64,000 bases of DNA, from contig JAHFNO010000006.1 of the NCBI GenBank assembly GCA_023267275.1, positions 9,519-73,518 on the forward strand, given 5' to 3'. How positions within the stretch are numbered: the first letter of the stretch is position 1; every line of letters begins with the position of its first letter. Both the position numbers and the translations under genes were made by a program. Below the pieces are notes generated by a model. The model saw only the letters and a program-made list of their open reading frames with translations, made no database searches and had not been told where the DNA came from. This DNA comes from Candidatus Nomurabacteria bacterium (GTDB taxonomy: Bacteria; Patescibacteriota; Minisyncoccia; Phycocordibacterales; UBA9973). This document shows, one piece after another, positions 11,413 through 62,818 of the stretch.

Positions 11413-12687
11413 ATGTCTCGAAAAACAATTCTTATTCTCATTGCAATTCTCCTCGTCGCACTCGGTGTGTGGTTCTATTTTTCGAGCGGAACTCCTTCAG
11501 GAACAAATTCTTCTGGAACACAAAAAAGTCTTTTGAGTTCTCTTTTTCCTTTTGGCGCGGGGACCAACAATCAACAGAACATAAAAACACAAGAACAAGG
11601 AACAACAAATCCAACTGAAGAGACTCAGAGCTCGAATACTCCAGATAAACTCATTCAAATATCAAATCGATTGGTTGCTGGTTTTATTCCACTTGTCACA
11701 GACACTACACCCATCATTAAACACGACATTGGTGGCGGACCAGAGTCACAGATTACTCAAAGTATTTTCCCAACAGTTCGTTTTGCCGAAAAAGGCACGG
11801 GGTACATTTACGATATTGATGTAAAAGGACAGAACGAAAAAAAGATTTCTGAAACAGTGATCGCTCGAACAGCAGAAGCTCTTTTTGCAAACGGTGGTGT
11901 CAACGTATTGCTCCGCTATATTAAAACCGACAATACAACTATTGCCTCATTCCTCGGCACTGTTACAGCACCAGCAAATACCAATGCGGTCGGCACACTT
12001 ACTGGAAATTTCCTTGAGGAAAATATTCCGACTGTCACAACATCACCTGACAAAAAGAATTTTCTCTTTTTAATACCAACAAACACGGGTATCGCTGGTA
12101 TCAGTATGAAAGGCGATGGAAGCGGTAAGAAGCAATTGTTTACGAGTTCTTTCTCTGAATGGCTCCTCGATTGGGGAACGAGCCCAATGCTTACCAGCAA
12201 GGCTTCTAGCACTGTTCCTGGCTATGCATACACTGTACTTGCCGGTGGATCACTGCAAAAAGTACTGGGCAATATAGATGGCCTTACTACAAAGATTAGT
12301 CCGGATGGAAAGACACTACTCTATAGCGTTTCTGGTGGAGGAAGTCTCAATTTACACATCCTAACGCTAAAAACCGGAGTTGATACAAATACCGGTCTTA
12401 CAACACTTCCGGAAAAATGTACTTGGAATACAACGAGTACTGTCGTTTATTGCGGAGTAGGTACGGCAATAGTATCAGCAGAATATCCTGACTCATGGTA
12501 CAAAGGTGTCACTCATTTCACAGATTCATTTTGGAAAATAGACACAACCACAAAAACCACGACGGAAATAAATACGGGGGAGGGAAACAATCTTGATGTA
12601 ATAAATCCAAGCATCGACCCAACTAGTCAATATCTTATTTTCATAAACAAAACAAACGGTAGTCTTTGGTCTTTACAACTCAATTAA
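11413..12687 (+). CDS. membrane-anchored protein with TolB-like beta-propeller repeats
   Basis: The ORF track starts at 11341, but the Met at 11413 begins a TM anchor (MSRKTILILIAILLVALGVWFYF). PDGKTLLYS-type repeats are present. Confidence 0.45.
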   Translation: MSRKTILILIAILLVALGVWFYFSSGTPSGTNSSGTQKSLLSSLFPFGAGTNNQQNIKTQEQGTTNPTEETQSSNTPDKLIQISNRLVAGFIPLVTDTTPIIKHDIGGGPESQITQSIFPTVRFAEKGTGYIYDIDVKGQNEKKISETVIARTAEALFANGGVNVLLRYIKTDNTTIASFLGTVTAPANTNAVGTLTGNFLEENIPTVTTSPDKKNFLFLIPTNTGIAGISMKGDGSGKKQLFTSSFSEWLLDWGTSPMLTSKASSTVPGYAYTVLAGGSLQKVLGNIDGLTTKISPDGKTLLYSVSGGGSLNLHILTLKTGVDTNTGLTTLPEKCTWNTTSTVVYCGVGTAIVSAEYPDSWYKGVTHFTDSFWKIDTTTKTTTEINTGEGNNLDVINPSIDPTSQYLIFINKTNGSLWSLQLN

Positions 12688-13471: not shown

Positions 13472-14200
13472 TTAAGCTTGTTTCTTCGCCTTCATCTTGC
13501 TTCGTGTGTAGAGCTCCTGACCTATAGTAAAGATATTACTCGTAATCCAATAAAGCGCAACTGCTGAAGGAAAAAGGAAGTAAGAGAGTCCGGCAGTCAT
13601 AATAGGGAGTCCATAAATCATTTGTACCTGCATATTCTTGGCAAATTCGGCTTGCATACCAGTACCTGTTGGCTTTGCCTGACGACTCTGCATAAGTTTT
13701 GCTTGTACAAACTGTGTTACTCCAACCAAAACAGCAAATACAATACTGTGCTTCACCGAAAGATCGATAAATCCCAAGAAGTGGAGATTGATGAGTGCTG
13801 GCTGGTGTACAAATGAATAGAGTGTCGCTGGTTGAACAATAGTAAGGATTCCAAGAAAGGCTCGATAGAGAGCAATGAGTACCACAGCCTGGATCAAGAG
13901 TGGCATACAACTTGAAAACGGACTGATATTCTTTTCTTTATACAGTGCGAAAATTTGTTTGTTCTGTTCGGTTTTATCAGTAACTTTTTCTTTGATAGCA
14001 GCAACTTCATCTTGCACACTAGTCATTTTGATCTGGCCTTCGATTGCATGCTGGTTGAGCGGGAAGAGGGCGAGTTTGATAATAATTGTAAGAATAATAA
14101 CCGCAAGACCAAGGTCTCCGTGTGGCAAAATACCAATACCAAAGATCAGTGCATTGTAAAAAGGCTGATAAAAAACAGCGGTCCAAAAAGTGTGTAACAT
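13472..14200 (-). CDS. yidC: membrane protein insertase YidC (short form)
   Basis: Polytopic 242-aa protein in the conserved rnpA-yidD-yidC-jag order. Confidence 0.8.
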   Translation of the reverse strand: MLHTFWTAVFYQPFYNALIFGIGILPHGDLGLAVIILTIIIKLALFPLNQHAIEGQIKMTSVQDEVAAIKEKVTDKTEQNKQIFALYKEKNISPFSSCMPLLIQAVVLIALYRAFLGILTIVQPATLYSFVHQPALINLHFLGFIDLSVKHSIVFAVLVGVTQFVQAKLMQSRQAKPTGTGMQAEFAKNMQVQMIYGLPIMTAGLSYFLFPSAVALYWITSNIFTIGQELYTRSKMKAKKQA

Positions 14201-45889: not shown

Positions 45890-48800
45890 ATGAACCCCCT
45901 CAACGAAAAAAACATAGCGGAAGAATCCCTCATCGACTGGCTGAAAGGCGAGGGGTATGAGTATGTAAAAGGTACAGATATCGCCCCGGGGCAGCCTCGT
46001 GCGGAGCGCGAGGATTTCCGGGGTGTGGTTTTAAAAGACCGCCTGCTTGGAGCTATTCGTAGGATCAATCCACAACTGCCTGCTGAACAGGCGGAACAAG
46101 TTGTTGTCGATATTGCCTCGTATCACAATGCTGATTTAATGCTCGGAAACAAGGAGATGTTTTCTTTTATTACAGAAGGAGTAAAAAGGACTTGGCAAGA
46201 ACAAGGAAATGAAAAAACAGAAATAGTAAAGTTGATTGATTTCGAGAATAAAGATGCGAATGAGTTCCTTGTAGTCAATCAATTTACGGTGCAGGGGGTT
46301 GACTCACTCGGTCGTCCCGATGTCGTTATTTTCATAAATGGATTGCCACTTGCGGTGTTCGAGCTGAAGAGCCCGGTACGACAAACCGCTGATATCCGTG
46401 AGGCATACAGAGATATTGAGGATTACAAAAAAGAAATACCGAAACTTTTTTTCTACAACCAGATTGTAGCGATTTCGGATTTATTCCACGCGCATCATGG
46501 AACGATCTCATCTTCGTGGGAACGTTATGGCACATGGAAGGGAATAAAAAATGAAACTGATGTTCCGAAAGATACAGAGGAACTCGAAGTGTTATTGAAA
46601 GGGCTTTTCAATAAGGAGCGGCTTTTGGATGTGATCGAAAACTTTATTGTTTTTGAAGCAAGTGGTGATGGTGATGCCGTAACATATACAAAAAAGATGT
46701 GTTTGTATCATCAGTATTATGGTGTCAATAAAACAATTGAGAGTACGATTCGCTCAGTTCTCGGCAAGCAAGATAGAAAAATCGGCGTATTTTGGCACAC
46801 ACAAGGATCAGGCAAATCGCTCTCAATGGTTTTTTATGTGAACAAAACAAAAAATATACCTGAGCTCAAAAGTCCGGCGTATGTGTTTTTGACTGATCGT
46901 GAAGATTTAGACGACCAGTTGTTTAAGACATTCAATCACACCGGATATGGAACTCTAGCCAAGAAGGCCTCAAGCATCAAAGATTTGCGCAGTCGACTTA
47001 CGTATATTGGCGGGGAACTTATTTTCACGACAATTCAAAAGTTTCAAGAAGATCCTGACGCGCATGAGGCCTTGAGTTTGCGCGAGAACATTATTGTTTT
47101 GGCCGACGAAGCGCACCGCACGCAGTATAGCAATCTGGCAGGCAATGTTCGTCTTGCACTGCCGAATGCGAGTTTTTTGGGAGTCACAGGTACGCCGATT
47201 GCTCGGAATGACAAAGATACAGTACGGGTGTTTGGCCCAGTTGTGAGTTCGTATAAGATCAGTCAATCAGTCAAAGACAAATCAACCGTGCCAATTTATT
47301 ACGAGGGGCGGCTTGTGCCACTCCATCTCGCTGATCAATTAATCGACAGCAAATTCGACGCGGTTCTCGGTGAAGTTGTGCCGGATGATAACGCACGAAT
47401 GCGTAAGGAGTATGCAGTGCTTGAGGAAGTCGTGGGCGCACCGAGCCGAATAGAGAAAATCGCACAGGATGTCATACATCATTTTAATAATCATCCAATT
47501 GAAGGTAAGGCCATGATTGTGACGATGAGCCGCCGAATCGCGGTGCTTATGTATGAGGCCATCCAAAAGATACCTAGTGTTCCAGAAGTGGCAGTCGTGA
47601 TTTCAAACAACGATGAATATAGTTCAAGAATTCAAAAGGAACATAATATAAAAACTTTAGAGCGAAGGTTTAAAGATGACAAAGATCCGCTCAAAATCGC
47701 CATTCTTTGTGATATGTGGCTCACCGGTTTTGACGTTCCGTGTATGCATACACTGTATCTCGATAAGCCTCTCAAAAATCATGGCTTGATGCAGGCGATA
47801 GCTCGCGTGAATCGAGTGTATAAAGACAAGCCAGGAGGTTTGGTTGTGGACTATATTGGTATTGCAGAGAATTTGAAAAAAGCACTTGCGTGGTATGACT
47901 CCGACATACAAAATGATGCGCTTGTTCCTATTTCCGAAGTTGTAGAGCAAATGAATATTCTCCGTGATCAAGTCACCAAATTTTTCGGGAAACTCGACTA
48001 TACTGCATGGAAGAAACTAAAAGGTATTGAGCTTGTCACAATTATGCAGGCAGGAATGAATGAGGTCATCACTCAAGGTGGCATATTAAATGACGAACAG
48101 AAGATGAAATACATGGGTACAGTTTCTAAGCTTTCAAAATTACACGCACTTGTAATGCCGGGGGATGAAGCTATGAAAATAATATCGGATCTCCAATTTT
48201 TTCAGGCTATACGAGAGGCAATTCGCAAACAAACTGTTTTGCCGCATGCGATATTCCCTGAAGAAACGGAAAGCGCGATTCGTAGCCTGATGCATAATTC
48301 AATTCAGGCTGAGGGCATCGTTGATCTTTTTAGCGTCCCAGGAGAAGAGAAGAAAAGTATTTCGATATTTGATGAGAAGTTTATTGAAGGTATCCGAAAA
48401 TCACACTACCAGAATTTTGCAGTCGATTCTGTGCGAAAATTGCTCGATCAGGAAATACGATCACGAATGCGATTGAATAATGCTCGATACGAAACAATGC
48501 TCTCGCTTCTTGAGGGTTTGATTGAAAAATATGAGAACAATGTAATTAGTTCTGCTGAAATTATAAAGCAGTTGCTTGAAATTGCAGATGGTATTAAAAA
48601 GCTAGATCAAGAAAGTAAGGAAACAGGACTCTCGAATGAAGAAATTGTTTTTTATGATTCTTTAGCCACCGACCCTGATCTAAAAAAAGCCGGAATTGAT
48701 ATTAAAGAATTTGTAAAGGAATTAACAAGGCGTATTCGACGTGATTTGGCAATCGATTGGACAAACAATGAAACAATCAAAGCTCGTATTCGTCAGAATG

Positions 48801-48919
48801 TGAGATTACTTTTATTACAAAAAGGGATTGTTGAGGAGATGCAGACGAAGCGACTAATTGAGTCGATATATCAAGAGACAGTAAGAGTATATAGAGGATT
48901 TTTACCTACAGTCTTATAA
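45890..48919 (+). CDS. hsdR: type I restriction enzyme R subunit HsdR
   Basis: N-terminal nuclease region; SF2 helicase motifs (GSGKS-like P-loop, DEAH-box VLADEAHRTQY); ~1010 aa. Confidence 0.85.
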   Translation: MNPLNEKNIAEESLIDWLKGEGYEYVKGTDIAPGQPRAEREDFRGVVLKDRLLGAIRRINPQLPAEQAEQVVVDIASYHNADLMLGNKEMFSFITEGVKRTWQEQGNEKTEIVKLIDFENKDANEFLVVNQFTVQGVDSLGRPDVVIFINGLPLAVFELKSPVRQTADIREAYRDIEDYKKEIPKLFFYNQIVAISDLFHAHHGTISSSWERYGTWKGIKNETDVPKDTEELEVLLKGLFNKERLLDVIENFIVFEASGDGDAVTYTKKMCLYHQYYGVNKTIESTIRSVLGKQDRKIGVFWHTQGSGKSLSMVFYVNKTKNIPELKSPAYVFLTDREDLDDQLFKTFNHTGYGTLAKKASSIKDLRSRLTYIGGELIFTTIQKFQEDPDAHEALSLRENIIVLADEAHRTQYSNLAGNVRLALPNASFLGVTGTPIARNDKDTVRVFGPVVSSYKISQSVKDKSTVPIYYEGRLVPLHLADQLIDSKFDAVLGEVVPDDNARMRKEYAVLEEVVGAPSRIEKIAQDVIHHFNNHPIEGKAMIVTMSRRIAVLMYEAIQKIPSVPEVAVVISNNDEYSSRIQKEHNIKTLERRFKDDKDPLKIAILCDMWLTGFDVPCMHTLYLDKPLKNHGLMQAIARVNRVYKDKPGGLVVDYIGIAENLKKALAWYDSDIQNDALVPISEVVEQMNILRDQVTKFFGKLDYTAWKKLKGIELVTIMQAGMNEVITQGGILNDEQKMKYMGTVSKLSKLHALVMPGDEAMKIISDLQFFQAIREAIRKQTVLPHAIFPEETESAIRSLMHNSIQAEGIVDLFSVPGEEKKSISIFDEKFIEGIRKSHYQNFAVDSVRKLLDQEIRSRMRLNNARYETMLSLLEGLIEKYENNVISSAEIIKQLLEIADGIKKLDQESKETGLSNEEIVFYDSLATDPDLKKAGIDIKEFVKELTRRIRRDLAIDWTNNETIKARIRQNVRLLLLQKGIVEEMQTKRLIESIYQETVRVYRGFLPTVL

Positions 48920-50210: not shown

Positions 50211-50513
50211 ACCCGCACACTTACTTTTTTATTACTCTCATGTTTTATGTATATGTTTTGAAAAGTAAAAAAGATGAAGAATTGTACATTGGTTCAACCA
50301 ATGATCTTAAGCGTAGAATAAAAGAACATGAGAGTGGAGAGAGTTTTTCAACAAAGCTGAGGAGACCTTTTGATTTAATTTATTACGAAGCATATAAAGA
50401 TGAGAAGGACGCAAGAAAGAGAGAGTCATCATTGAAACTTCGTGGAAGGTCTCGTTTTCATTTAATGCAAAGATTAAAAAACTCTCTCCTATAAAAAAGT
50501 AAGTGTGCGGGTA
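50211..50513 (+). mobile_element. GIY-YIG gene bracketed by perfect 20-bp inverted repeats (putative mini mobile element)
   Basis: Left inverted repeat ACCCGCACACTTACTTTTTT at 50211-50230; its exact reverse complement at 50494-50513; the CDS between them is GIY-YIG. Confidence 0.55.
50240..50494 (+). CDS. GIY-YIG (URI-domain) nuclease family protein, 84 aa
   Basis: MFYVYVLKSKKDEELYIGSTNDLKRRIKEHESGE ... matches the short stand-alone GIY-YIG family. Confidence 0.8.
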   Translation: MFYVYVLKSKKDEELYIGSTNDLKRRIKEHESGESFSTKLRRPFDLIYYEAYKDEKDARKRESSLKLRGRSRFHLMQRLKNSLL

Positions 50514-52193: not shown

Positions 52194-52266
52194 CCGCCCG
52201 TAGCTCAGCTGGTAGAGCAGCTCCCTTTTAAGGAGAGGGTCGCAGGTTCGATTCCTGCCGGGCGGA
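52194..52266 (+). tRNA. tRNA-Lys (anticodon UUU)
   Basis: Manual fold: acceptor CCGCCCG/CGGGCGG, D-loop AGCTGGTA, anticodon loop CTTTTAA, T-arm GCAGG-TTCGATT-CCTGC, discriminator A. No CCA is encoded. Confidence 0.85.
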
Positions 52267-52373
52267 CACTTACAAAAATGAGCTCGACTTTTAGGTCGAG
52301 CCATTTTTGTGTGTCCGCCCGGAGAAAGCCAACTTCTCATTCAGCAGAATGACTCTTGGAGTAAGGCTTTCGT

Positions 52374-52463
52374 CAGGAATCGAAAGACTTTTCGTTACCG
52401 AAGTTTACTTCGGTCGAAAAGTATCTGGCGACGTGGTCGCCGATCCGTGTACTCACTTCCTGC
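52374..52463 (+). ncRNA. conserved 90-nt structured element downstream of tRNA (copy 1)
   Basis: Shares CAGGAATCGAAAGACTTTTC ... GAAAAGTAYCTG ... CGATCCGTGTACTCACTTCCTGC with 58335-58424. The two internal hairpins differ at every base pair between copies but stay fully paired. Confidence 0.5.
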
Positions 52464-52505
52464 TGCATTCAATAACTTTCGATAAGAGTACTCGCGATCC
52501 TGCTT

Positions 52506-53255
52506 TTATTTATATTGTATCTGTATTCCACCCGGCACAATTTTCATACCTTTGATCTCTTTCCCAGACTGCATTTTTTTACGGAGCACGTATTTCTTAA
52601 AAATTTCATCGAGTAGAGGGTTTACCTTATCTTTTGCTTTCCAGGTTAAAAGGAGCCCCGCGTCGATCTTTCTTGTTTCTTTTGGTATTGTAAGAAAATC
52701 TCCATTCTGAACAATAGTCCCAGAAACTTTTACATCTACGGTCGAAACAATAGTTGCTTTAAAAGTAAGATGATCACCTTCCTTGTTTATTTCGATATTG
52801 TAGAGTTCCGATTTGTCACCCTTTTCTTTCATACTTGTTACAATCATATCTTCAAAACTTTTTCGAAATTCTGTCAGATTTATCACTACCGGTGGATTTT
52901 CCACTTTTTTCATTTCAGCTTTTTTATCCAGACCCGCAATTATTTTTTCCGGAATCGGTTTTGGCGAGTAGGGAATACTTTCTGTGATGAGCAATTTTGC
53001 TGGTGCGGGTTCTAGTTTGTCGATATAGGTTGCTTCAATTTCTTTTTTCAACGTGTCGTGCGATACAAGCGTGCTTGTAGTATCACTCACTGTTTTTGCA
53101 GATTGCTCGGTTTTAGGTTTTTCAGTTTTGTGATGATTTTGTTGTTCGGAACTTTCGCCAGGGTGCATTAACATAGCTCCTGCGAGCACTGCCGTTTTAA
53201 AAATAGTGCCTCGTTTATTTTCAGCTTCTTTGTGTATTTTTTTGAATCCTTCCAT
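52506..53255 (-). CDS. secreted/membrane-anchored hypothetical protein
   Basis: N-terminal hydrophobic segment AVLAGAMLM; Lys/Glu-rich. Confidence 0.5.
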   Translation of the reverse strand: MEGFKKIHKEAENKRGTIFKTAVLAGAMLMHPGESSEQQNHHKTEKPKTEQSAKTVSDTTSTLVSHDTLKKEIEATYIDKLEPAPAKLLITESIPYSPKPIPEKIIAGLDKKAEMKKVENPPVVINLTEFRKSFEDMIVTSMKEKGDKSELYNIEINKEGDHLTFKATIVSTVDVKVSGTIVQNGDFLTIPKETRKIDAGLLLTWKAKDKVNPLLDEIFKKYVLRKKMQSGKEIKGMKIVPGGIQIQYK

Positions 53256-56086: not shown

Positions 56087-56671
56087 TTATTTTTTTCCTA
56101 AAATTTTAAGGGCCTCTTTAATACGCGCGTTTGTTCCGATGATTTCGGCAGGCACTTCTTTGAGTGCATCGCGAGCTTCGTTTTGAGAATAGCCGAGTGC
56201 TTTGAGTGCTTCAACAACATCAGACTCGGCGCGGAGTTCATGTGGATTTTCTTTTGTATCGGCATGCGCTTTGAGCTTGTCGCGCAATTCGAGCACTACT
56301 TTTTCTGCAGTCTTGCGGCCGATGCCAGAAACTTTTGTGAGATAACTCGTGTCGCCAGTAGCGATTGCTTTCTTGAGTGTGTTGGTCGATGTTGCACTCA
56401 AAATTGCGAGTGCACCTTTTGGTCCGATACCAGAAACAGAAATAAGGAGCTGAAAAAAATCTTCTTCCTCGCGAGAAACAAATCCGTACAAATCGAGTGC
56501 ATCTTCACGTACGACAAGATAGGTAAAAAGCGATGCCGGTGTATCTTCGCGAAGTTGGGCAAGGGTATCGGTTGAACAATATACTTTGTAGCCAACGCCA
56601 CGAACGTCGATGACTGCAAATTTTTCACTGAGTTCGATGATGGTGCCTGTTAAATGCGATATCATGAACAT
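56087..56671 (-). CDS. ruvA: Holliday junction DNA helicase RuvA
   Basis: MISHLTGTIIE...VIDVRGVGYKV OB-fold N-terminus and HhH motifs (GIGPKGALAIL, GIGRKTAEKV). Confidence 0.85.
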   Translation of the reverse strand: MFMISHLTGTIIELSEKFAVIDVRGVGYKVYCSTDTLAQLREDTPASLFTYLVVREDALDLYGFVSREEEDFFQLLISVSGIGPKGALAILSATSTNTLKKAIATGDTSYLTKVSGIGRKTAEKVVLELRDKLKAHADTKENPHELRAESDVVEALKALGYSQNEARDALKEVPAEIIGTNARIKEALKILGKK

Positions 56672-56834
56672 AGTATACAGTATTCAGTATACGGTATACA
56701 GTATAGGTATCAGACCCTTGAATATCTAAAGTATTTCTGGTATAGTGTTTTTGCCTAAGTATGGTGTCTCGTATTTGGGTCGTTTTATTTCATACTGTAT
56801 ACGAAATACCGTATACTTAATACTAATTCAATCT

Positions 56835-58043: not shown

Positions 58044-58191
58044 ATAATCATTTTAATCAATTACACAAAACATCCGTATACAACGCGGGTGTTTTTTATT
58101 CTCTATTTACTAATTTAGCAAAATAACGTATAGTCTAACTCTGTATAAGTGTTCCCTTAGCGTGTTAATTCGTTTTTTGGCTAATAAATAT

Positions 58192-58263
58192 GATCCTGTC
58201 GTTCAACGGATAGGACACTCCCCTGCGAAGGGAGAAATGCAGGTTCGATTCCTGCCAGGATCA
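58192..58263 (+). tRNA. tRNA with anticodon GCG (reads Arg codon CGC), variable loop 4 nt
   Basis: Manual fold: acceptor GATCCTG/CAGGATC, D-arm GTTC-AACGGATA-GGAC, anticodon stem CTCCC/GGGAG with loop CTGCGAA, T-arm GCAGG-TTCGATT-CCTGC, discriminator A. Confidence 0.65.
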
Positions 58264-58334
58264 CAAAAAGAAAAAGCACCCATTAGGGTGTTTTTTCTTT
58301 TTGTGTCCTGAGCGAGCCAACTGTTTGGCTCGCG

Positions 58335-58424
58335 GCAGGAATCGAAAGACTTTTCTATGTTTTGTTTACAAAACAAGAAAAGTACCTGCCTATGTAATAG
58401 GCGATCCGTGTACTCACTTCCTGC
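58335..58424 (+). ncRNA. conserved 90-nt structured element downstream of tRNA (copy 2)
   Basis: See 52374-52463. Hairpins TTTTGTT/AACAAAA and CCTAT-GTA-ATAGG replace CCGAAGT/ACTTCGG and GCGAC-GTG-GTCGC. Confidence 0.5.
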
Positions 58425-58578
58425 CAGGATCACCAAGTCGTGACTACTCACGAGGAGCTTAAAATGCTCTAAATATAGCCAAATCAAAAAACTACCCGAT
58501 TGGGTAGTTTTTTGATTTGGCTATTACTGTTTATTTGCGAGAGAAGTAAATTCAAACCCCTGAGGGCTATGACATCCT

Positions 58579-58848
58579 ATGTTTAATGAAACTAAGTACA
58601 CTATCGCCATAAGTATGGGCGAGGCTTTGGAAGAGCATCAAAAACGTCTTGAAGAAGAGATTAGAAAAACATATTATAACGGGCAAAGAGAAAAAGGTGA
58701 TGAGTTGACCCGTGAAAAAGTGAATACGCTTTATGCTTACTTTCCTGTAAAAATAGACCACGAAAATGATTCTAATAATATGTCACTCGTTAAAAGATTT
58801 AATGTGTTAAGACAAGGTATTGAGAAGTTGTTTCGACGGAAAAAATAA
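58579..58848 (+). CDS. hypothetical protein
   Basis: ORF only. Confidence 0.4.
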   Translation: MFNETKYTIAISMGEALEEHQKRLEEEIRKTYYNGQREKGDELTREKVNTLYAYFPVKIDHENDSNNMSLVKRFNVLRQGIEKLFRRKK

Positions 58849-59024
58849 TTTTCACTTTTAATAAAAATACTCAAACATATCAAAATTTCGAGTTTTAAAT
58901 CGGTATCGTTCCAGAAAACATAAGACTACCAAACATGTTGATTTGTTAGGAAATAATTTTACATAATAAAACCCCCTGACAATTTTGCCAGAGGGTTTGA
59001 ATATTTTATTCCCGCTTTACTTAA

Positions 59025-59570
59025 TTACTGCACCGTTTTTTTCCTAAAAACAAGAAAATCCGGTATCAACAATTTTAACGAAACTTCCTTGTTGCCAGCT
59101 TCCTTCATTCTCTCTAATGTTCCGAGTGGGTCAATCAGAAAACTAACACCAACAAGGACAATTAGAAACCCTACTAAAGTGAGGAGAACAAATCTGAAAA
59201 CCTCGTCACCAGCAGTGCTTAAGAAATGATCTTGTCCGGGTGTTATCCCGTGAGAATCATGGTGACACTCAACTTTAATCCCGTTAGGAGTCGATTTTAC
59301 ATAATAAAACCGATGGTCTTCATTAACATTGGGGAAAACCGTAACCCAGCTTTTTTCAACATTTGGATAAAAGTAAGATTTTACTATATCAAATGATGTT
59401 AAATTTAAACCAGCCACCGGAATACCCCGCCCGTTTTCAAAGCTGTATTTTTGAGGCTCAAATCTTTGATTCTCAATGTATGCTTTGATTGGGAAAAGTG
59501 GTAGTACGATTAGAGCTATGCTCATAATACGTAGCAGTGCTGCGCGATGCGCAAGAACAAACTTTTTCAT
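59025..59570 (-). CDS. hypothetical membrane protein (N- and C-terminal TM segments)
   Basis: Hydrophobic segments MSIALIVLPLF and FVLLTLVGFLIVLVGVSFLI. Confidence 0.45.
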   Translation of the reverse strand: MKKFVLAHRAALLRIMSIALIVLPLFPIKAYIENQRFEPQKYSFENGRGIPVAGLNLTSFDIVKSYFYPNVEKSWVTVFPNVNEDHRFYYVKSTPNGIKVECHHDSHGITPGQDHFLSTAGDEVFRFVLLTLVGFLIVLVGVSFLIDPLGTLERMKEAGNKEVSLKLLIPDFLVFRKKTVQ

Positions 59571-59643
59571 TTAATACGTTTTTGAGTTGAACATTGTTTT
59601 GGTGCCTTAGACCCGTGTCTAAGACTATCCGGTAGTTATTTCT

Positions 59644-60135
59644 TTAGGATTTTGGCTTCATTAACGTGTCTTCGTTTATACTCCTCAAGCATTCCAAGTC
59701 GTGTTCCTTTTCAGCAATTTTCTGAAAAGCATTCCTTGTTGCTTGTGGTGTTCGGCCGTTAGATAAATACCAATCATACCCATCTCCGCTAAACCTTTTG
59801 CGGAGAAACCTCGCAGTACTATCCGGCCCCAAAGTCCGCTCAAGTACCAAAATGGCGTCATGCGTAAGCTTGAGGTAGTTTGTGTGGTCTATCCAAGCTA
59901 TACGTGTAAACGCTATTTTAATTGCGCTTGCTTTCAGGGTGTCATTTGGACGCACTAGGTACGTCTTCATGGTGTCCAGGGATAATCGTTCAACTAGCGA
60001 CACTCTTACACCAGGGTAAACCGTAGTGTCGTCAGTGATTATAATTCCAGCGTTACTATTTTTCGCGCTGTTTTTTTGATCGCAATAAGCGATTGTGCCT
60101 ATAACAAGCAAAGCGGCGATGATAAAGCTTCTCAT
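59644..60135 (-). CDS. secreted hypothetical protein
   Basis: The Met at 60135 begins a signal peptide (MRSFIIAALLVIGTIAYC); the ORF-track alternative start is 60201. Confidence 0.45.
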   Translation of the reverse strand: MRSFIIAALLVIGTIAYCDQKNSAKNSNAGIIITDDTTVYPGVRVSLVERLSLDTMKTYLVRPNDTLKASAIKIAFTRIAWIDHTNYLKLTHDAILVLERTLGPDSTARFLRKRFSGDGYDWYLSNGRTPQATRNAFQKIAEKEHDLECLRSINEDTLMKPKS

Positions 60136-60534
60136 ATGTCTATTGTGTTGTTTTTGTGGCGTAAAGCCGTTTTTTGAATTGGTTGCCCCAAGGGCTATCA
60201 AGCCATTCAGGCAACCAATTCAAGTTAAAGCAACCTTATTTTCAAAGGATATACTTATGTTTAGTATAACATATACATCATAAAAAGTCAAGCAAAATAA
60301 CCTTGTAAAATAAGGGTAGAAAAGCTAAGAAGAGTATAAAAATGGGGAATTTTGACCCAAAATCTGCCATAGATTATATTAACTAATCGTTATTTCCTTA
60401 GCGAACTTTTTCAGCAGAAAAAGATTTGTGACCGATACGTGTACTCATTTCCTGTCAGGATCACATCCTCGTGATGGCTCATGAGGAGTTTAAGAAGCTC
60501 TACATAAAGTACCCCCCCAATTGGTTTAAATGTA

Positions 60535-61449
60535 TTACTTTTTTCCTATACTTTCCTTATATATTTTGCTTTGCCTTAAGATAAAATCCCAATATCCTGG
60601 TATGAACTGATGTGCAGCACGCACTGCTACTTCTCCAAGAAATTTGTCAGCTTCATCATTATTAGGATGACGAAAACCCTCAGTTAATTTTTTGACTATT
60701 TCACTATCCAAAGATTCTTGAAATCTAACACCAATGGAAATATAGGAATTACCACGATTGTCAGTCATGTAATTATTGCGAGGTTCCATAGGATCTCCCT
60801 CGAAGCAGCGGACGCGAAATTGCACCAATGCATAAATCCATGGGTCAGATCTAGAGAATTTAGTGTACCCTGTAAAAAGTTCTTTGTCTCCACTAGGTCT
60901 GTCGTCTAAAAATTCTAAACTTCTCGTACTCACCATTTTTTGTTTTTGTTGATCAAAAATACCTCCGCTAGCTCCAGTACCCGAGCCACGTTCTTCGTCC
61001 GTTACATTTCCTATGCCATATGAGACAAAATTGATACGCGGATCATGTTTTATGAGCTCAAGAGTTTTGTTCACTAATTTTTCTTGAAGCGCTCTTTCTA
61101 AAGCTTTAGGATCCTCGGTTGGATCTTCTTTTTTTGGTTCAACAGCGTCAACTGAAGATTTATTGCTTGAGCTCATTTTTAGAATTTCACCACGAATTGC
61201 TTCGGTGGCATACTCATCTGCAGTTTTTCTTGCTTCGTCAGCAATAATATTAAGAGATTCTTTCGATGTCGTTGTAGGAGCCAAGTTTATTTCTTTATCA
61301 TTTGGAATTCTGTCGATATTATTTTTTGCAGCAAGTGCTCCAATCTCCGCCAAGTCTTTATTATCAAGACTAGCTTTGTTTATATCTTCTAGGGTAAATT
61401 TCGCCGGTTCCACGTTTATTATATTACAATGAATTGTAGATTTCGACAA
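60535..61449 (-). CDS. hypothetical protein
   Basis: ORF only; a 2x23-nt tandem repeat lies in its upstream region. Confidence 0.45.
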   Translation of the reverse strand: MSKSTIHCNIINVEPAKFTLEDINKASLDNKDLAEIGALAAKNNIDRIPNDKEINLAPTTTSKESLNIIADEARKTADEYATEAIRGEILKMSSSNKSSVDAVEPKKEDPTEDPKALERALQEKLVNKTLELIKHDPRINFVSYGIGNVTDEERGSGTGASGGIFDQQKQKMVSTRSLEFLDDRPSGDKELFTGYTKFSRSDPWIYALVQFRVRCFEGDPMEPRNNYMTDNRGNSYISIGVRFQESLDSEIVKKLTEGFRHPNNDEADKFLGEVAVRAAHQFIPGYWDFILRQSKIYKESIGKK

Positions 61450-61476
61450 CGATATTTTCGCACCCCATTTTCTGTC

Positions 61477-61523
61477 TAGGTCTTGCCTAGGCTATGCAAT
61501 AGGTCTTGCCTAGGCTATGCAAA
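61477..61523. repeat. tandem direct repeat, 2 x ~23 nt (AGGTCTTGCCTAGGCTATGCAA)
   Basis: Exact tandem copies, each containing a CCTAGG palindrome. The repeat lies between the start of 60535-61449 (-) and the stop of 61487-62239 (-). Confidence 0.8.
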
Positions 61524-62239
61524 TACTCATACGCCTTAGGAATCCACGTATCAATATCCGGATTGTATAACCAAAGCTTTCTTAAATATTCATAATATTT
61601 TTGATGGCCTGGATATCCAAAGTATTCTATTTCTCCTTGCATCTCTTTGAATTCAGGAAGGGTTTGTATTACATCATTAAACAATTCTGCCAACATCCAG
61701 AAGATTCCAGTATTTTTGTCGAGTGTTCCAAAAATCTCTGGAAATTTTTTAACTGCATAATCATAAAAAAAGAAATGCAGTATTTCATGAATTGCAATTT
61801 CATTTGAACCATTTTTGTGTTTGTAAAAAACCTGAAATGTTTTGGTGTCGAGGAATCGGGGATTGCAATTGATTGTCGATATATATCCAACCCATTTACC
61901 ATCAGGTTTGAGGGGATTTTTAAAAACAGTATTCAATTGTTTCGTAAATACATTTTCAATTTTTACCCAGTCGGTTTGAAACTGAGATACATATTGTTCC
62001 AACTCCGTTTTGTGCTCGTCATAATATGTATCAAAATATTCTCCAATAATTCTTTTTTGTTCATCCTCGTGTAAATCTTTTATGCTTGCAAGCGTTGGAT
62101 GAAAATCGGTAACGTTCTTCGAAAAATCAACACCAGCAATTTTGCTGGATTTGTTGAGAAAAACAAAAGCCATTTCTTTGTCGAGTTCTTTATTCAATTC
62201 GAATGTAATGCCTAGATTCATATGCGGAGATTGTACCAT
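61487..62239 (-). CDS. hypothetical protein with HExxH motif (possible metallopeptidase)
   Basis: AIHEILHFFF contains HEILH; no other support. Confidence 0.4.
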   Translation of the reverse strand: MVQSPHMNLGITFELNKELDKEMAFVFLNKSSKIAGVDFSKNVTDFHPTLASIKDLHEDEQKRIIGEYFDTYYDEHKTELEQYVSQFQTDWVKIENVFTKQLNTVFKNPLKPDGKWVGYISTINCNPRFLDTKTFQVFYKHKNGSNEIAIHEILHFFFYDYAVKKFPEIFGTLDKNTGIFWMLAELFNDVIQTLPEFKEMQGEIEYFGYPGHQKYYEYLRKLWLYNPDIDTWIPKAYEYLHSLGKTYCIA

Positions 62240-62392: not shown

Positions 62393-62818
62393 ATGGCCAC
62401 ACATGAACATACAACGGTCACTTTGGAGGATCTCATTCTGACATTTCGCCGAAAAATTATCGACGTGTGTCGCAGAGAGGGTTTGCCATACGACCTCACA
62501 CTTTCTCAAGCAGAAATTGTTCGCTACATCGGTATGACAGGGCATGTTCCTATGAAGGACATTGCCGAGCATTTGAAAATTACTCCACCATCGGCCACTG
62601 TTGCCATTGCCGAACTAGAGAAGAAAGGAGTTGTCATGCGAGTATCTGACAAAAATGATCGCCGAATCGTTTCCATATCACTCACAAAGAAAGCTGAAAA
62701 AATATATCACTCAATGCAAAAGCATAAAGAGACCGTGCTCAAAGAAATGCTTTCACGATTGAATGAAGCCGACAAAAAAACACTTGAACGAATTATTACT
62801 ATTCTTATAAAAGACTAA
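62393..62818 (+). CDS. MarR-family transcriptional regulator
   Basis: Winged-helix region LSQAEIVRYIGMTGHVPMKDIAEHLKITPPSATVAIAELEKKGVVMRVSDKNDRR. Confidence 0.8.
   Translation: MATHEHTTVTLEDLILTFRRKIIDVCRREGLPYDLTLSQAEIVRYIGMTGHVPMKDIAEHLKITPPSATVAIAELEKKGVVMRVSDKNDRRIVSISLTKKAEKIYHSMQKHKETVLKEMLSRLNEADKKTLERIITILIKD

Follow-up and report, generated by a model that had tools for sequence, protein, structure and literature searches.

In a 64,000-nt stretch of a Candidatus Nomurabacteria genome (GenBank assembly GCA_023267275.1, contig JAHFNO010000006.1, positions 9,519 to 73,518), the gene for tRNA-Arg(GCG) is followed by two further copies of its own 3' end. Are these direct repeats the scars of integration at the tRNA gene, or do they belong to a structured element? 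The whole stretch is called the window in this work, and positions are those of the window unless another locus is named. An initial annotation, made from the sequence alone, had read the repeats as scars of serial integrations around a small island or, alternatively, as parts of a structured module. Each alternative proved partly right: the repeats bound inserted DNA, but they are module components. It was concluded that the modules mark sites of extra-DNA insertion in these bacteria of the Candidate Phyla Radiation (CPR), and that the repeats, instead of being plain scars, form part of a structured tRNA-mimicking module that is widespread. The sample analyzed consists of 143 Paceibacterota loci (~1.7 Mb), namely the window, 80 related genome loci and 62 metagenome loci; single loci are cited by L numbers. 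The 80 genome loci are the closest by RuvA and all belong to Paceibacterota, Minisyncoccia or Parcubacteria; the best RuvA match is 89% identical (metagenome-assembled genome JAGOPR010000024). The 62 metagenome loci were gathered with a pattern scan for the S1 loop plus segment (b), two module parts described below.

Three copies of the tRNA-Arg 3' end

The 16-mer TTCCTGCCAGGATCAC is found on the + strand at 58249-58264 (copy 1), 58418-58433 (copy 2, exact) and 60449-60464 (copy 3, one mismatch, C to T). A search of the window at up to two mismatches gave these three matches and no more. The mean number of chance matches was 0.03 over 100 dinucleotide shuffles, and none of the 100 shuffles reached three. 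A hairpin (TCGTGA-N4-TCAYGA) with a GGAGYTTAA..GCTCTA tail follows copy 2 (58438-58471) and copy 3 (60469-60502), with no third match in the window at up to three mismatches (chance expectation 0.00). A chance origin of the 16-mer and hairpin repeats was rejected by these shuffle expectations. The three copies, the hairpin and the tail reported in the initial annotation are real. Its position for copy 2 was exact, while those for copy 1 (58243-58258) and copy 3 (60440-60455) were 6 nt and 9 nt too low. The true repeat is also longer than the 16-mer, hairpin and tail noticed there: around copies 2 and 3 it spans 77 nt at 79% identity (58402-58478 versus 60433-60509) and takes in 16 nt located 5' of the 16-mer. 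A plain attL/attR pair would not show a 77-nt repeat with similar flanks on both sides.

The reading as an island fared unevenly. The reported absence of an integrase holds, as the six open reading frames (ORFs) between 57600 and 62239 gave no match to any Pfam family. The island had been extended to the MarR gene (62393-62818), but it is not one bounded unit up to that point because no further copy of TTCCTGCCAGGATCAC lies beyond 60464. The GC content at 58-62 kb is 0.35-0.40 versus ~0.40 for the window, so an atypical, foreign composition was not found. Copy 2 is not a simple att scar, because a module carrying the tRNA's own 3' end closes in the same way behind at least 15 tRNA isoacceptors. 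Recurrence of the repeat after many unrelated tRNAs with no insertion polymorphism had been named as the observation that would speak against an island; the recurrence was found, but together with empty sites, arrays and cassettes. Empty sites in relatives were found for tRNA-Lys, whereas the flanks of tRNA-Arg have no homologues in relatives.

The modules behind tRNA-Arg(GCG) and tRNA-Lys(UUU)

The region 58192-58524 contains the following elements, in which X denotes the tRNA 3' end and X' its inverted copy.

58192-58263, + strand: tRNA-Arg(GCG) (ARAGORN; Rfam tRNA 64.2 bits)
58246-58264, + strand: segment X, copy 1, the last 16-21 nt of tRNA-Arg (3' part of the T-loop, T-stem 3' strand, acceptor 3' strand and discriminator)
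58262-58305, + strand: cap hairpin T1, a 20-bp stem, 95% complementary, resembling a bidirectional terminator
58303-58310, + strand: segment (a) GTGTCCTG, first part of X'; apart from a one-base deletion it is the reverse complement of GTGATCCTG, which comprises the acceptor 3' strand and the discriminator
58311-58334, + strand: S1 hairpin AGCGAGCC-AACTGTTT-GGCTCGCG, exactly at the acceptor/T-stem junction of X'
58335-58346, + strand: segment (b) GCAGGAATCGAA, second part of X', identical to the reverse complement of TTCGATTCCTGC (T-loop and 3' strand of the T-stem); it pairs with copy 2
58347-58417, + strand: cargo, with hairpins P1 (58349-58383) and P2 with a GTA triloop (58388-58402) and the P3 mini-hairpin GTG-TACT-CAC (58408-58417)
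58418-58433, + strand: segment (c), which is copy 2 and the second X; its pairing with (b) and (a) closes the module
58438-58471, + strand: hairpins S4 (TCGTGA-CTAC-TCACGA) and S5 (GAGC-TTAAAAT-GCTC), 3' of copy 2
58475-58524, + strand: T2, a perfect 23-bp palindrome resembling a bidirectional terminator

T1 begins at the tRNA discriminator and continues directly into segment (a); it is the tip of a long X/X' hairpin. The partner strand of copy 2 in its helix, X' with its parts (a) and (b) at 58303-58346, is the reverse complement of the tRNA end, and in the predicted folds the helices that close the module are identical in sequence to the T and acceptor stems of the tRNA. The predicted minimum-energy fold of the tRNA-Arg module, as RNA and as DNA, has a z-score of -8.2. 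In the predicted single-stranded DNA (ssDNA) fold of 58192-58530 the tRNA 3' half pairs with (a) and (b) through T1 (z = -17). X' is thus able to pair with either copy of X in mutually exclusive predicted folds. S1 is optional in the module family and is missing from L061-type modules. The S4/S5 hairpins were not found in the other genomes examined and are repeated only after copy 3. A promoter-like site lies ahead of tRNA-Arg at 58106-58134.

The structured module alluded to in the initial annotation is also present behind a second tRNA gene of the window, with the same order of parts.

52194-52266, + strand: tRNA-Lys(UUU), by Rfam alignment (anticodon loop CUUUUAA)
52267-52503, + strand: tRNA-Lys module, in the order cap hairpin, (a), S1, (b), cargo, P3, (c)
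52313-52322, + strand: segment (a) GTCCGCCCGG, matching the acceptor 3' strand of tRNA-Lys instead of tRNA-Arg
52323-52372, + strand: S1, long form
52373-52384, + strand: segment (b) TCAGGAATCGAA, the reverse complement of the tRNA-Lys T-loop plus T-stem 3' strand
52385-52456, + strand: cargo of the same type as behind tRNA-Arg, including P3 (52447-52456)
52457-52463, + strand: segment (c) TTCCTGC
52481-52503, + strand: a second P3-(c) unit GATAAGAGTACTCGCGATCCTGC

The second P3-(c) unit is a leftover right end. Together with an ORFan at 52506-53255, the module amounts to a 1.06-kb insert relative to genomes in which tRNA-Lys abuts trmH. Neither tRNA gene of the window encodes CCA, and the same holds for most other module-bearing tRNAs seen. 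ARAGORN called the gene at 52194 'tRNA-Stop(tta)'. It is tRNA-Lys(UUU) and not a suppressor tRNA, because the Rfam alignment, in which one stem pair is mismatched, shows the anticodon loop CUUUUAA; ARAGORN was out of register, and a suppressor tRNA or a recoded phage was rejected. The same miscall of tRNA-Lys recurs in L002, L007 and L008.

The module family in Paceibacterota

On the tRNA-sense strand the general layout is X (last 16-21 nt of the tRNA), cap, X', cargo and second X, over ~130-200 bases. The cap is a terminator-like stem, a GCGAAGC mini-hairpin or a mere 4-nt loop. X' is usually split by S1 at the acceptor/T-stem junction. The cargo (70-130 nt, two or three hairpins) is common to different tRNAs and genomes, unlike X and X', which are local. 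A module was scored where the tRNA's own anti-T 12-mer (the reverse complement of its T-loop/T-stem) occurred with at most one mismatch within 200 nt downstream. By this measure 102 of 261 scorable tRNAs carry a module and 159 do not. In the genome loci and the window, the own anti-T 12-mer was found ~30-170 nt downstream of 30 of the 174 scorable tRNAs and upstream of none; in an upstream control with a first set of 188 tRNAs, no match was better than two mismatches. Direct 13-mer copies of the tRNA's own 3' end number 69 downstream versus 4 upstream.

At least 15 tRNA isoacceptors are involved. Anti-T modules lie behind tRNAs for Arg (GCG, UCU, CCG, CCU), Lys (UUU, CUU), Ser (UGA), Val (UAC, GAC), Trp, Leu, Cys and Glu, and direct copies of the own 3' end are also found behind Ser (CGA), Phe and Pro tRNAs. 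The inverted copy tracks the local tRNA: it reads GGGGGATTCGAA behind tRNA-Ser with TTCGAATCCCCC, GTTGGAATCGAA behind tRNAs with CCAAC, and AGAAGACTTGAA behind tRNA-Val with TTCAAGTCCTCT. Segment (a), taken as an 8-mer, fits the local tRNA at 0-1 mismatch in 55 of 97 modules. A 7-mer comparison of (b)/(c) with tRNA identity was too strict, as (c) starts at differing T-loop positions depending on cargo type; it was replaced by the covariance-model alignment described below.

The family is apparently undescribed. In Rfam searches only the two tRNAs themselves passed the gathering threshold, and at E<=10 nothing credible was found in the module regions. Ribozymes, riboswitches, T-box elements, omega/HEARO-type RNAs and tmRNA were set aside for lack of such matches. 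A full-text literature search for modules of this kind, or for folded single-stranded att sites at tRNA genes, returned nothing relevant. Exact two-motif scans of genome and metagenome collections gave 0 matches because the pattern is too strain-specific.

Signs of insertion and mobility

An integration-type origin is supported because empty sites, head-to-tail arrays and X-bounded cassettes were all found. In the empty sites (L013, L015, L028, L018 and L009) only 1-3 nt separate tRNA-Lys from the start codon of trmH/SpoU downstream. Orthologous tRNA-Arg genes beside ruvA carry differing cargo types or no module, and the regions 3' of tRNA-Arg, tRNA-Lys and tRNA-Ser are hypervariable among relatives. 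Perfect head-to-tail arrays of gene-less modules were found at four loci: three units of 134 nt in L018 (2607-3040), two of 134 nt in L238 (1009-1400), two of 134 nt in L278 (2560-2860, minus strand) and three of 152 nt in L239 (11889-12450). The array unit in L238, L239 and L278 is X-cap-X'-cargo; the cap there is not a terminator but a GCGAAGC-type mini-hairpin or a 4-nt loop. In the L018 array the first unit is not repeated whole, and the later repeats comprise the stretch from (b) to (c) and, in addition, a truncated second cargo.

Cassettes of 0.5-2 kb without a recombinase lie between two copies of X in the window and at four other loci.

L020: a membrane protein gene, followed by a full second module
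L029: a gene for a pilin-like protein with an N_methyl motif
L039: a zeta toxin gene and a small partner
L062 (behind tRNA-Ser): a GIY-YIG nuclease gene (77 aa) as the sole gene

Two apparent cassettes of 6-9 kb (L065 and L269) were discarded; they consist of housekeeping genes before a chance or paralogous near-match of the 13-mer.

In the ~60-nt P1-P2 part of the cargo, the module behind tRNA-Lys in L024 and that behind tRNA-Arg in L053 differ at only one or two positions, while their caps, S1 and X are different. Because the genes of these two loci are merely 66-74% identical, the cargo has been exchanged horizontally while the tRNA-matching arms are local. Displaced modules occur 1-3 kb downstream of the tRNA (L011, L014 and L020) or beside a decayed tRNA end (L037), so further DNA enters between tRNA and module. 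In L014 a 45-nt duplicate of the tRNA-Lys 3' half, from the anticodon loop to the 3' end, lies 1.4 kb downstream of tRNA-Lys (12268-12341) in the region 13650-13910, and is followed by a displaced cap-X'-S1-(b) module. It appears from this duplication that conventional integrase-type integration also occurs at these tRNAs.

The 2-kb cassette and copy 3

The cassette of the window and its right boundary are made up of the following features.

58434-60448: integrase-less cassette of 2.0 kb between copies 2 and 3
58579-58848 (+), 59025-59570 (-) and 59644-60138 (-): cassette ORFs, three ORFans, no Pfam match
60406-60448, + strand: decayed 3' end of a second module, 'type C', with no X'/(b) upstream; it consists of the hairpin CTTTTTCAGCAGAAAAAG (60406-60423), the motif TTGTGACC (60426-60433) and P3 GTG-TACT-CAT (60439-60448)
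60449-60464, + strand: copy 3, TTCCTGTCAGGATCAC, the right boundary of the cassette
60469-60502, + strand: hairpins S4' and S5', 3' of copy 3

Type C modules with 3' ends matching this remnant are present in L043, L076, L233, L266 and L279. The predicted fold of the copy 3 region is weak (z = -2.2), which agrees with decay of the second module. S4' and S5' contain one G.T wobble each, lying on the + strand. The two contexts differ: copy 2 is preceded by type A cargo and P3 and followed by S4, S5, T2 and genes, while copy 3 is preceded by type C cargo and P3 and followed by S4' and S5'. The ORF at 59025-59570 is an ORFan with no homologue in 5.8 billion clusters, and a comparison of the island ORFs with 142 related loci gave no homologue apart from one weak p250 match. 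Two further ORFs (60535-61449, and 61487-62239 on the minus strand) lie within 60535-62239, where no further X copy bounds them.

Secondary structure, and the question of DNA or RNA

A covariance model built from 17 modules finds 40 modules in the genome loci. In the resulting alignment 93.9% of the cells are standard pairs and 36 of 38 pairs have changed on both sides. The covariation score is 0.55, versus 0.146 for shuffles and 0.06-0.10 for slid partners. S1 (helix 1) shows compensatory changes in 9 of 9 pairs with 98% of the cells paired; for the (b)/(c) helix the figures are 5 of 6 pairs and 90%. Covariation is also seen in the cargo helices 3-7, and in L029 the (b)/(c) pair has covaried away from the tRNA (GCAGAA/TTCTGC).

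Which strand folds was assigned by loop motifs, because neither G.U pairs nor fold energies show a strand bias. G.U pairs account for 27-29 of ~670 pairs in the minimum-energy folds of either strand and for ~2% of paired cells in the covariance-model alignment, and the fold energies are equal between strands. GCGAAGC occurs 26 times on the tRNA-sense strand of the module regions versus 2 times for its complement, which is 10 times the background. The GCGNAGC 'mini-hairpin DNA' is a motif of extraordinary stability that is considerably less stable in its RNA version; the motif is known from single-stranded replication initiation sites (PMC13037366). GNA triloops number 58 on the sense strand (50 of them GTA, the P2 loop) versus 7, while UNCG tetraloops are not enriched (6 versus 4). 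A terminator-like cap separates tRNA and module in the window, where it is strong, and at many other loci; a scan for promoter-like sites inside the module found none. The second X of the L021 tRNA-Ser module runs 17 nt past the tRNA end, and the complementarity of X' carries on into the locus-specific cap. Because both exceed the mature tRNA end, the gene and not the mature tRNA was copied. The folded form is probably the sense DNA strand, which is favoured by these data and not proven.

Proposed explanation and alternatives

We tentatively propose, with a confidence somewhat short of even, that the modules are the attachment sites of small non-autonomous integrative cassettes and that these sites fold from ssDNA. 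In a free element, circular or single-stranded, one X would be paired with X', and the duplex would reproduce the tRNA gene's 3' end in double-stranded form. A recombinase whose gene lies elsewhere would exchange strands between the X of the element and that of the tRNA gene, leading to insertion. The element's own X with its cap or terminator would restore the tRNA end and the old X would be displaced downstream, giving X-cap-X'-cargo-X; reuse of any X could then generate arrays and cassettes. The folded substrate is probably ssDNA of tRNA-sense polarity. In the window, the resident tRNA-Arg module (58262-58433) may have gained the 2-kb cassette by Campbell-type recombination within X, the partner being a circle that carried a related site (type C cargo-P3-X-S4-S5) and three genes. 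Such an event would explain why copies 2 and 3 are alike on both flanks. The predicted circle junction of the tRNA-Arg module is ...GTGTACTCAC-TTCCTGCCAGGATCAC-AAAAAGAAAAAGCACCC and its predicted empty site is tRNA...TTCCTGCCAGGATCAC-CAAGTCGTGACTAC; the empty site of the 2-kb cassette is predicted to read GTGTACTCAC-X-ATCCTCGTGATGG.

Several observations weigh against this proposal. Clustering of 2108 downstream ORFs from the 143 loci found no recombinase beside the modules; only syntenic housekeeping families recur. No excised circle or circular contig was found. Exact-protein look-ups for presence or absence at the strain level returned contigs identical to the window (L082-L089), or the protein was not on record, and scans of viral contigs with three motifs gave chance matches only, none of which was confirmed by the module profile. 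X and X' are tRNA-specific, so a fixed element would need either one lineage per tRNA or re-templating of both arms at insertion. Near-identical cargo with different arms could equally arise if resident modules swap cargo by homologous recombination. Having been fitted to the model, the covariation alignment leans towards structure, and the low number of G.U pairs may partly mirror the youth of the copies. RNA-like features are also present: GNRA loops number 20 on the sense strand (mostly GAAA) versus 2, some unpaired nucleotides are conserved, and type C cargo contains a possible tandem G.A internal loop. A further-reaching version of the proposal, which we consider unlikely, is that the modules form a new class of recombinase-less cassette in which the attachment hairpin is an ssDNA replica of the 3' end of the occupied tRNA and both arms are re-specified from the target at each insertion.

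The three-way junction copies the acceptor and T stems of the neighbouring tRNA exactly, with S1 at the natural junction, and the module could instead be a gene for a tRNA-like non-coding RNA, an explanation we regard as doubtful but as the likeliest of the alternatives to the ssDNA proposal. Here (a)/(c) would be an acceptor mimic, (b)/(c) an extended T stem, S1 would take the place of the D and anticodon arms and the cargo would be an expanded T-loop. RNase P and RNase Z could free such an RNA from a co-transcript of tRNA and module, in the manner of mascRNA or of a tRNA-linked small RNA, and it could act as a decoy, sponge or regulator for a reader of acceptor/T minihelices, or by pairing with the tRNA 3' half via X'. 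The strong covariation and the conserved unpaired motifs are in keeping with it, as are the identity of the folded strand with the tRNA-sense strand, the absence of a terminator between tRNA and module where the cap is only GCGAAGC or CACA, and the terminator that often lies 3' of (c). On the other hand, in the window and at many loci a strong terminator-like hairpin with a T-run splits the tRNA from the module, with no promoter-like site between them. The T-loop is destroyed and replaced by its complement AATCGAA, an extended helix and cargo, so the fold should escape recognition by enzymes that read the tRNA elbow. G.U pairs make up about 2-4% of pairs and the stability shows no strand bias; the loops are of the DNA types GNA and GCGAAGC and UNCG is not enriched (6 versus 4), yet GNRA is sense-enriched (20 versus 2). 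A tRNA-like RNA also leaves the arrays, the decayed right ends, the X-bounded cassettes and the copies extending past the mature tRNA end unexplained, and no Rfam family matches it. The evidence leans to DNA rather than to a tRNA-like RNA.

Two more conventional explanations are less probable still. Ordinary tyrosine integrases could have integrated double-stranded DNA at tRNA 3' ends with later deletion, leaving X as attL/attR cores and cap, X' and cargo as attP arms; the modules would be dead or mobilisable in cis and the hairpins would be arm-type binding sites. The direct repeats of tRNA 3' ends that bound inserted DNA, the 45-nt tRNA-Lys duplication in L014 and the hypervariable regions 3' of tRNA-Arg, tRNA-Lys and tRNA-Ser are what such scars would look like, but we think it improbable that they account for the modules: the 143 loci contain 0 full-length integrase-bearing elements versus more than 100 modules, and remnants would not hold 94% pairing with compensatory changes. 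Nor would one expect an inverted core copy matched to each tRNA, perfect tandem arrays of 134-152-nt units or strand-specific DNA-hairpin loop motifs. A cis element serving the tRNA gene itself is very improbable. The X/X' hairpin with a terminator at its tip would then be a reinforced terminator or would protect or process the 3' end of CCA-less precursors, and the second X would free the tRNA 3' half. In accordance with such a role, the hairpin starts exactly at the discriminator and takes in the acceptor 3' strand, both module-bearing tRNA genes of the window lack an encoded CCA, as do most others seen, and X' pairs with either X in mutually exclusive folds. Against it, most orthologous tRNAs have no module (159 versus 102 scorable) and some abut the next gene, modules are found 1-3 kb from the tRNA or beside decayed tRNA ends (L011, L020 and L037), and arrays, cassettes and horizontally shared cargo are unexplained. 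tRNA-primed reverse transcription with X' as the primer-binding site was set aside, since the complementarity enters the locus-specific flank past the mature tRNA end and S1 interrupts it. IS110 bridge RNA, TnpB/IscB guide RNA and TIGR arrays were also considered and set aside, as the modules have no associated protein gene and X and X' are complementary to each other.

Comparison with known systems

Integrons consist of arrays of small, mostly promoter-less accessory cassettes (toxin-antitoxin genes, ORFans), each ending in a structure-conserved attC site of which one strand folds. The modules resemble attC sites and clusters of attC sites lacking integron-integrases (CALINs) in being imperfect palindromes with structure conserved over sequence, as seen from covariation, in that one strand apparently folds, and in cassettes that carry toxin, nuclease and ORFan genes. 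They differ in having no R''(RYYYAAC)/R'(GTTRRRY) boxes, as their arms (GCAGGAATCGAA and (GA)TTCCTGC plus acceptor sequence) are copies of the local tRNA. They are anchored at a tRNA gene and not at attI, with no IntI gene or cassette promoter (Pc) nearby; many units are gene-less, and the sites are larger and branched (S1, P1-P3). In the CTX phage, two inverted copies of the target pair within one strand and rebuild the target, host XerCD carries out the recombination, and arrays form beside the regenerated target. Like such integrative mobile elements exploiting Xer (IMEX), the modules carry inverted target copies (X' is the reverse complement of X in 102 modules, paired in the predicted ssDNA fold), have no recombinase of their own and form arrays beside a regenerated target. 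Unlike them, they target the 3' ends of many tRNA genes instead of dif, their arms vary with the tRNA, and the elements are 130-200 nt or small cassettes and not phages. By analogy, the system would work like integron attC or CTX-phage attP and yet belong to neither.

Prophages, integrative and conjugative elements (ICEs), genomic islands and cis-mobilizable elements (CIMEs) that target tRNA genes by tyrosine integrases share with the modules the direct repeats of the tRNA 3' end, the restoration of the tRNA by element sequence and the presence of several units per tRNA. The modules differ from them by the lack of an integrase, an inverted core copy in every unit, a conserved hairpin architecture, gene-less units of 134-152 nt in perfect tandem and a composition that is not foreign. 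Among tRNA-like RNAs (the tRNA-like domain of tmRNA, viral tRNA-like structures, mascRNA, YrlA) the common points are the coaxial acceptor-like and T-like helices and the branch at their junction; in the modules the T-loop is replaced by an extended helix and cargo, the helices are identical in sequence to those of the neighbouring tRNA, and there is no Rfam match. Palindrome-associated transposable elements (PATEs), the miniature elements derived from IS200/IS605, have subterminal hairpins, make no target duplication, use a short (4-5 nt) target motif and depend on a TnpA(Y1) in the genome. The modules have hairpins too, but direct target repeats of 16-21 nt flank the units. By this comparison the modules are a new variant of tRNA-anchored, folded-site integrative cassettes.

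CPR bacteria (Patescibacteria) have tiny genomes with few recognisable mobile elements and many ORFans, and how they acquire accessory genes is an open question. As marked by the module family, tRNA 3' ends would be a widespread hotspot of gene acquisition that requires no resident integrase gene. If the ssDNA proposal is true, the principle of attC and CTX, in which a folded strand imitates a double-stranded target, extends to tRNA genes with the site sequence tracking the target. If the arms are re-specified at each insertion, a common cargo could colonise many tRNA genes and build integron-like arrays in reduced CPR genomes; such re-templating would be categorically new. For annotation, islands in these genomes can be delimited by a two-part signature, the anti-T 12-mer of the tRNA itself at most 200 nt downstream and a further copy of its 3' end. 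A direct repeat of a tRNA end alone does not imply an integrase scar.

Neighbouring features of the window

A stand-alone GIY-YIG nuclease ORF of 84 aa (50240-50494; PF01541, E = 8e-19) is a relative of the 77-aa ORF of the L062 cassette. It is flanked by perfect 21-bp inverted repeats, CCCGCACACTTACTTTTTTAT (50211-50231) and ATAAAAAAGTAAGTGTGCGGG (50492-50512). The region 50211-50512 resembles a tiny element bounded by inverted repeats, located between holA and a DsbB-like gene. Between ruvA and rpsT there are imperfect inverted repeats rich in GTATAC/TATAC (56671-56704 versus 56792-56825, 79-85% complementary). A type I restriction enzyme R subunit (HSDR_N, ResIII, T1RH-like_C; 46087-48919, minus strand), called on the identical contig L082, is encoded ~3 kb upstream of the tRNA-Lys locus. 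At 61477-61522 a 23-nt sequence is perfectly duplicated in tandem (TAGGTCTTGCCTAGGCTATGCAA twice); the duplication covers the stop-codon end of the minus-strand ORF 61487-62239 and the gap before ORF 60535-61449. Within 36000-63000, the cumulative GC skew climbs from ~36 kb, peaks at 58-59 kb, where tRNA-Arg, its module and the cassette are located, and then drops. The peak could be due to gene orientation or to a replication terminus, 64 kb being too short to tell.

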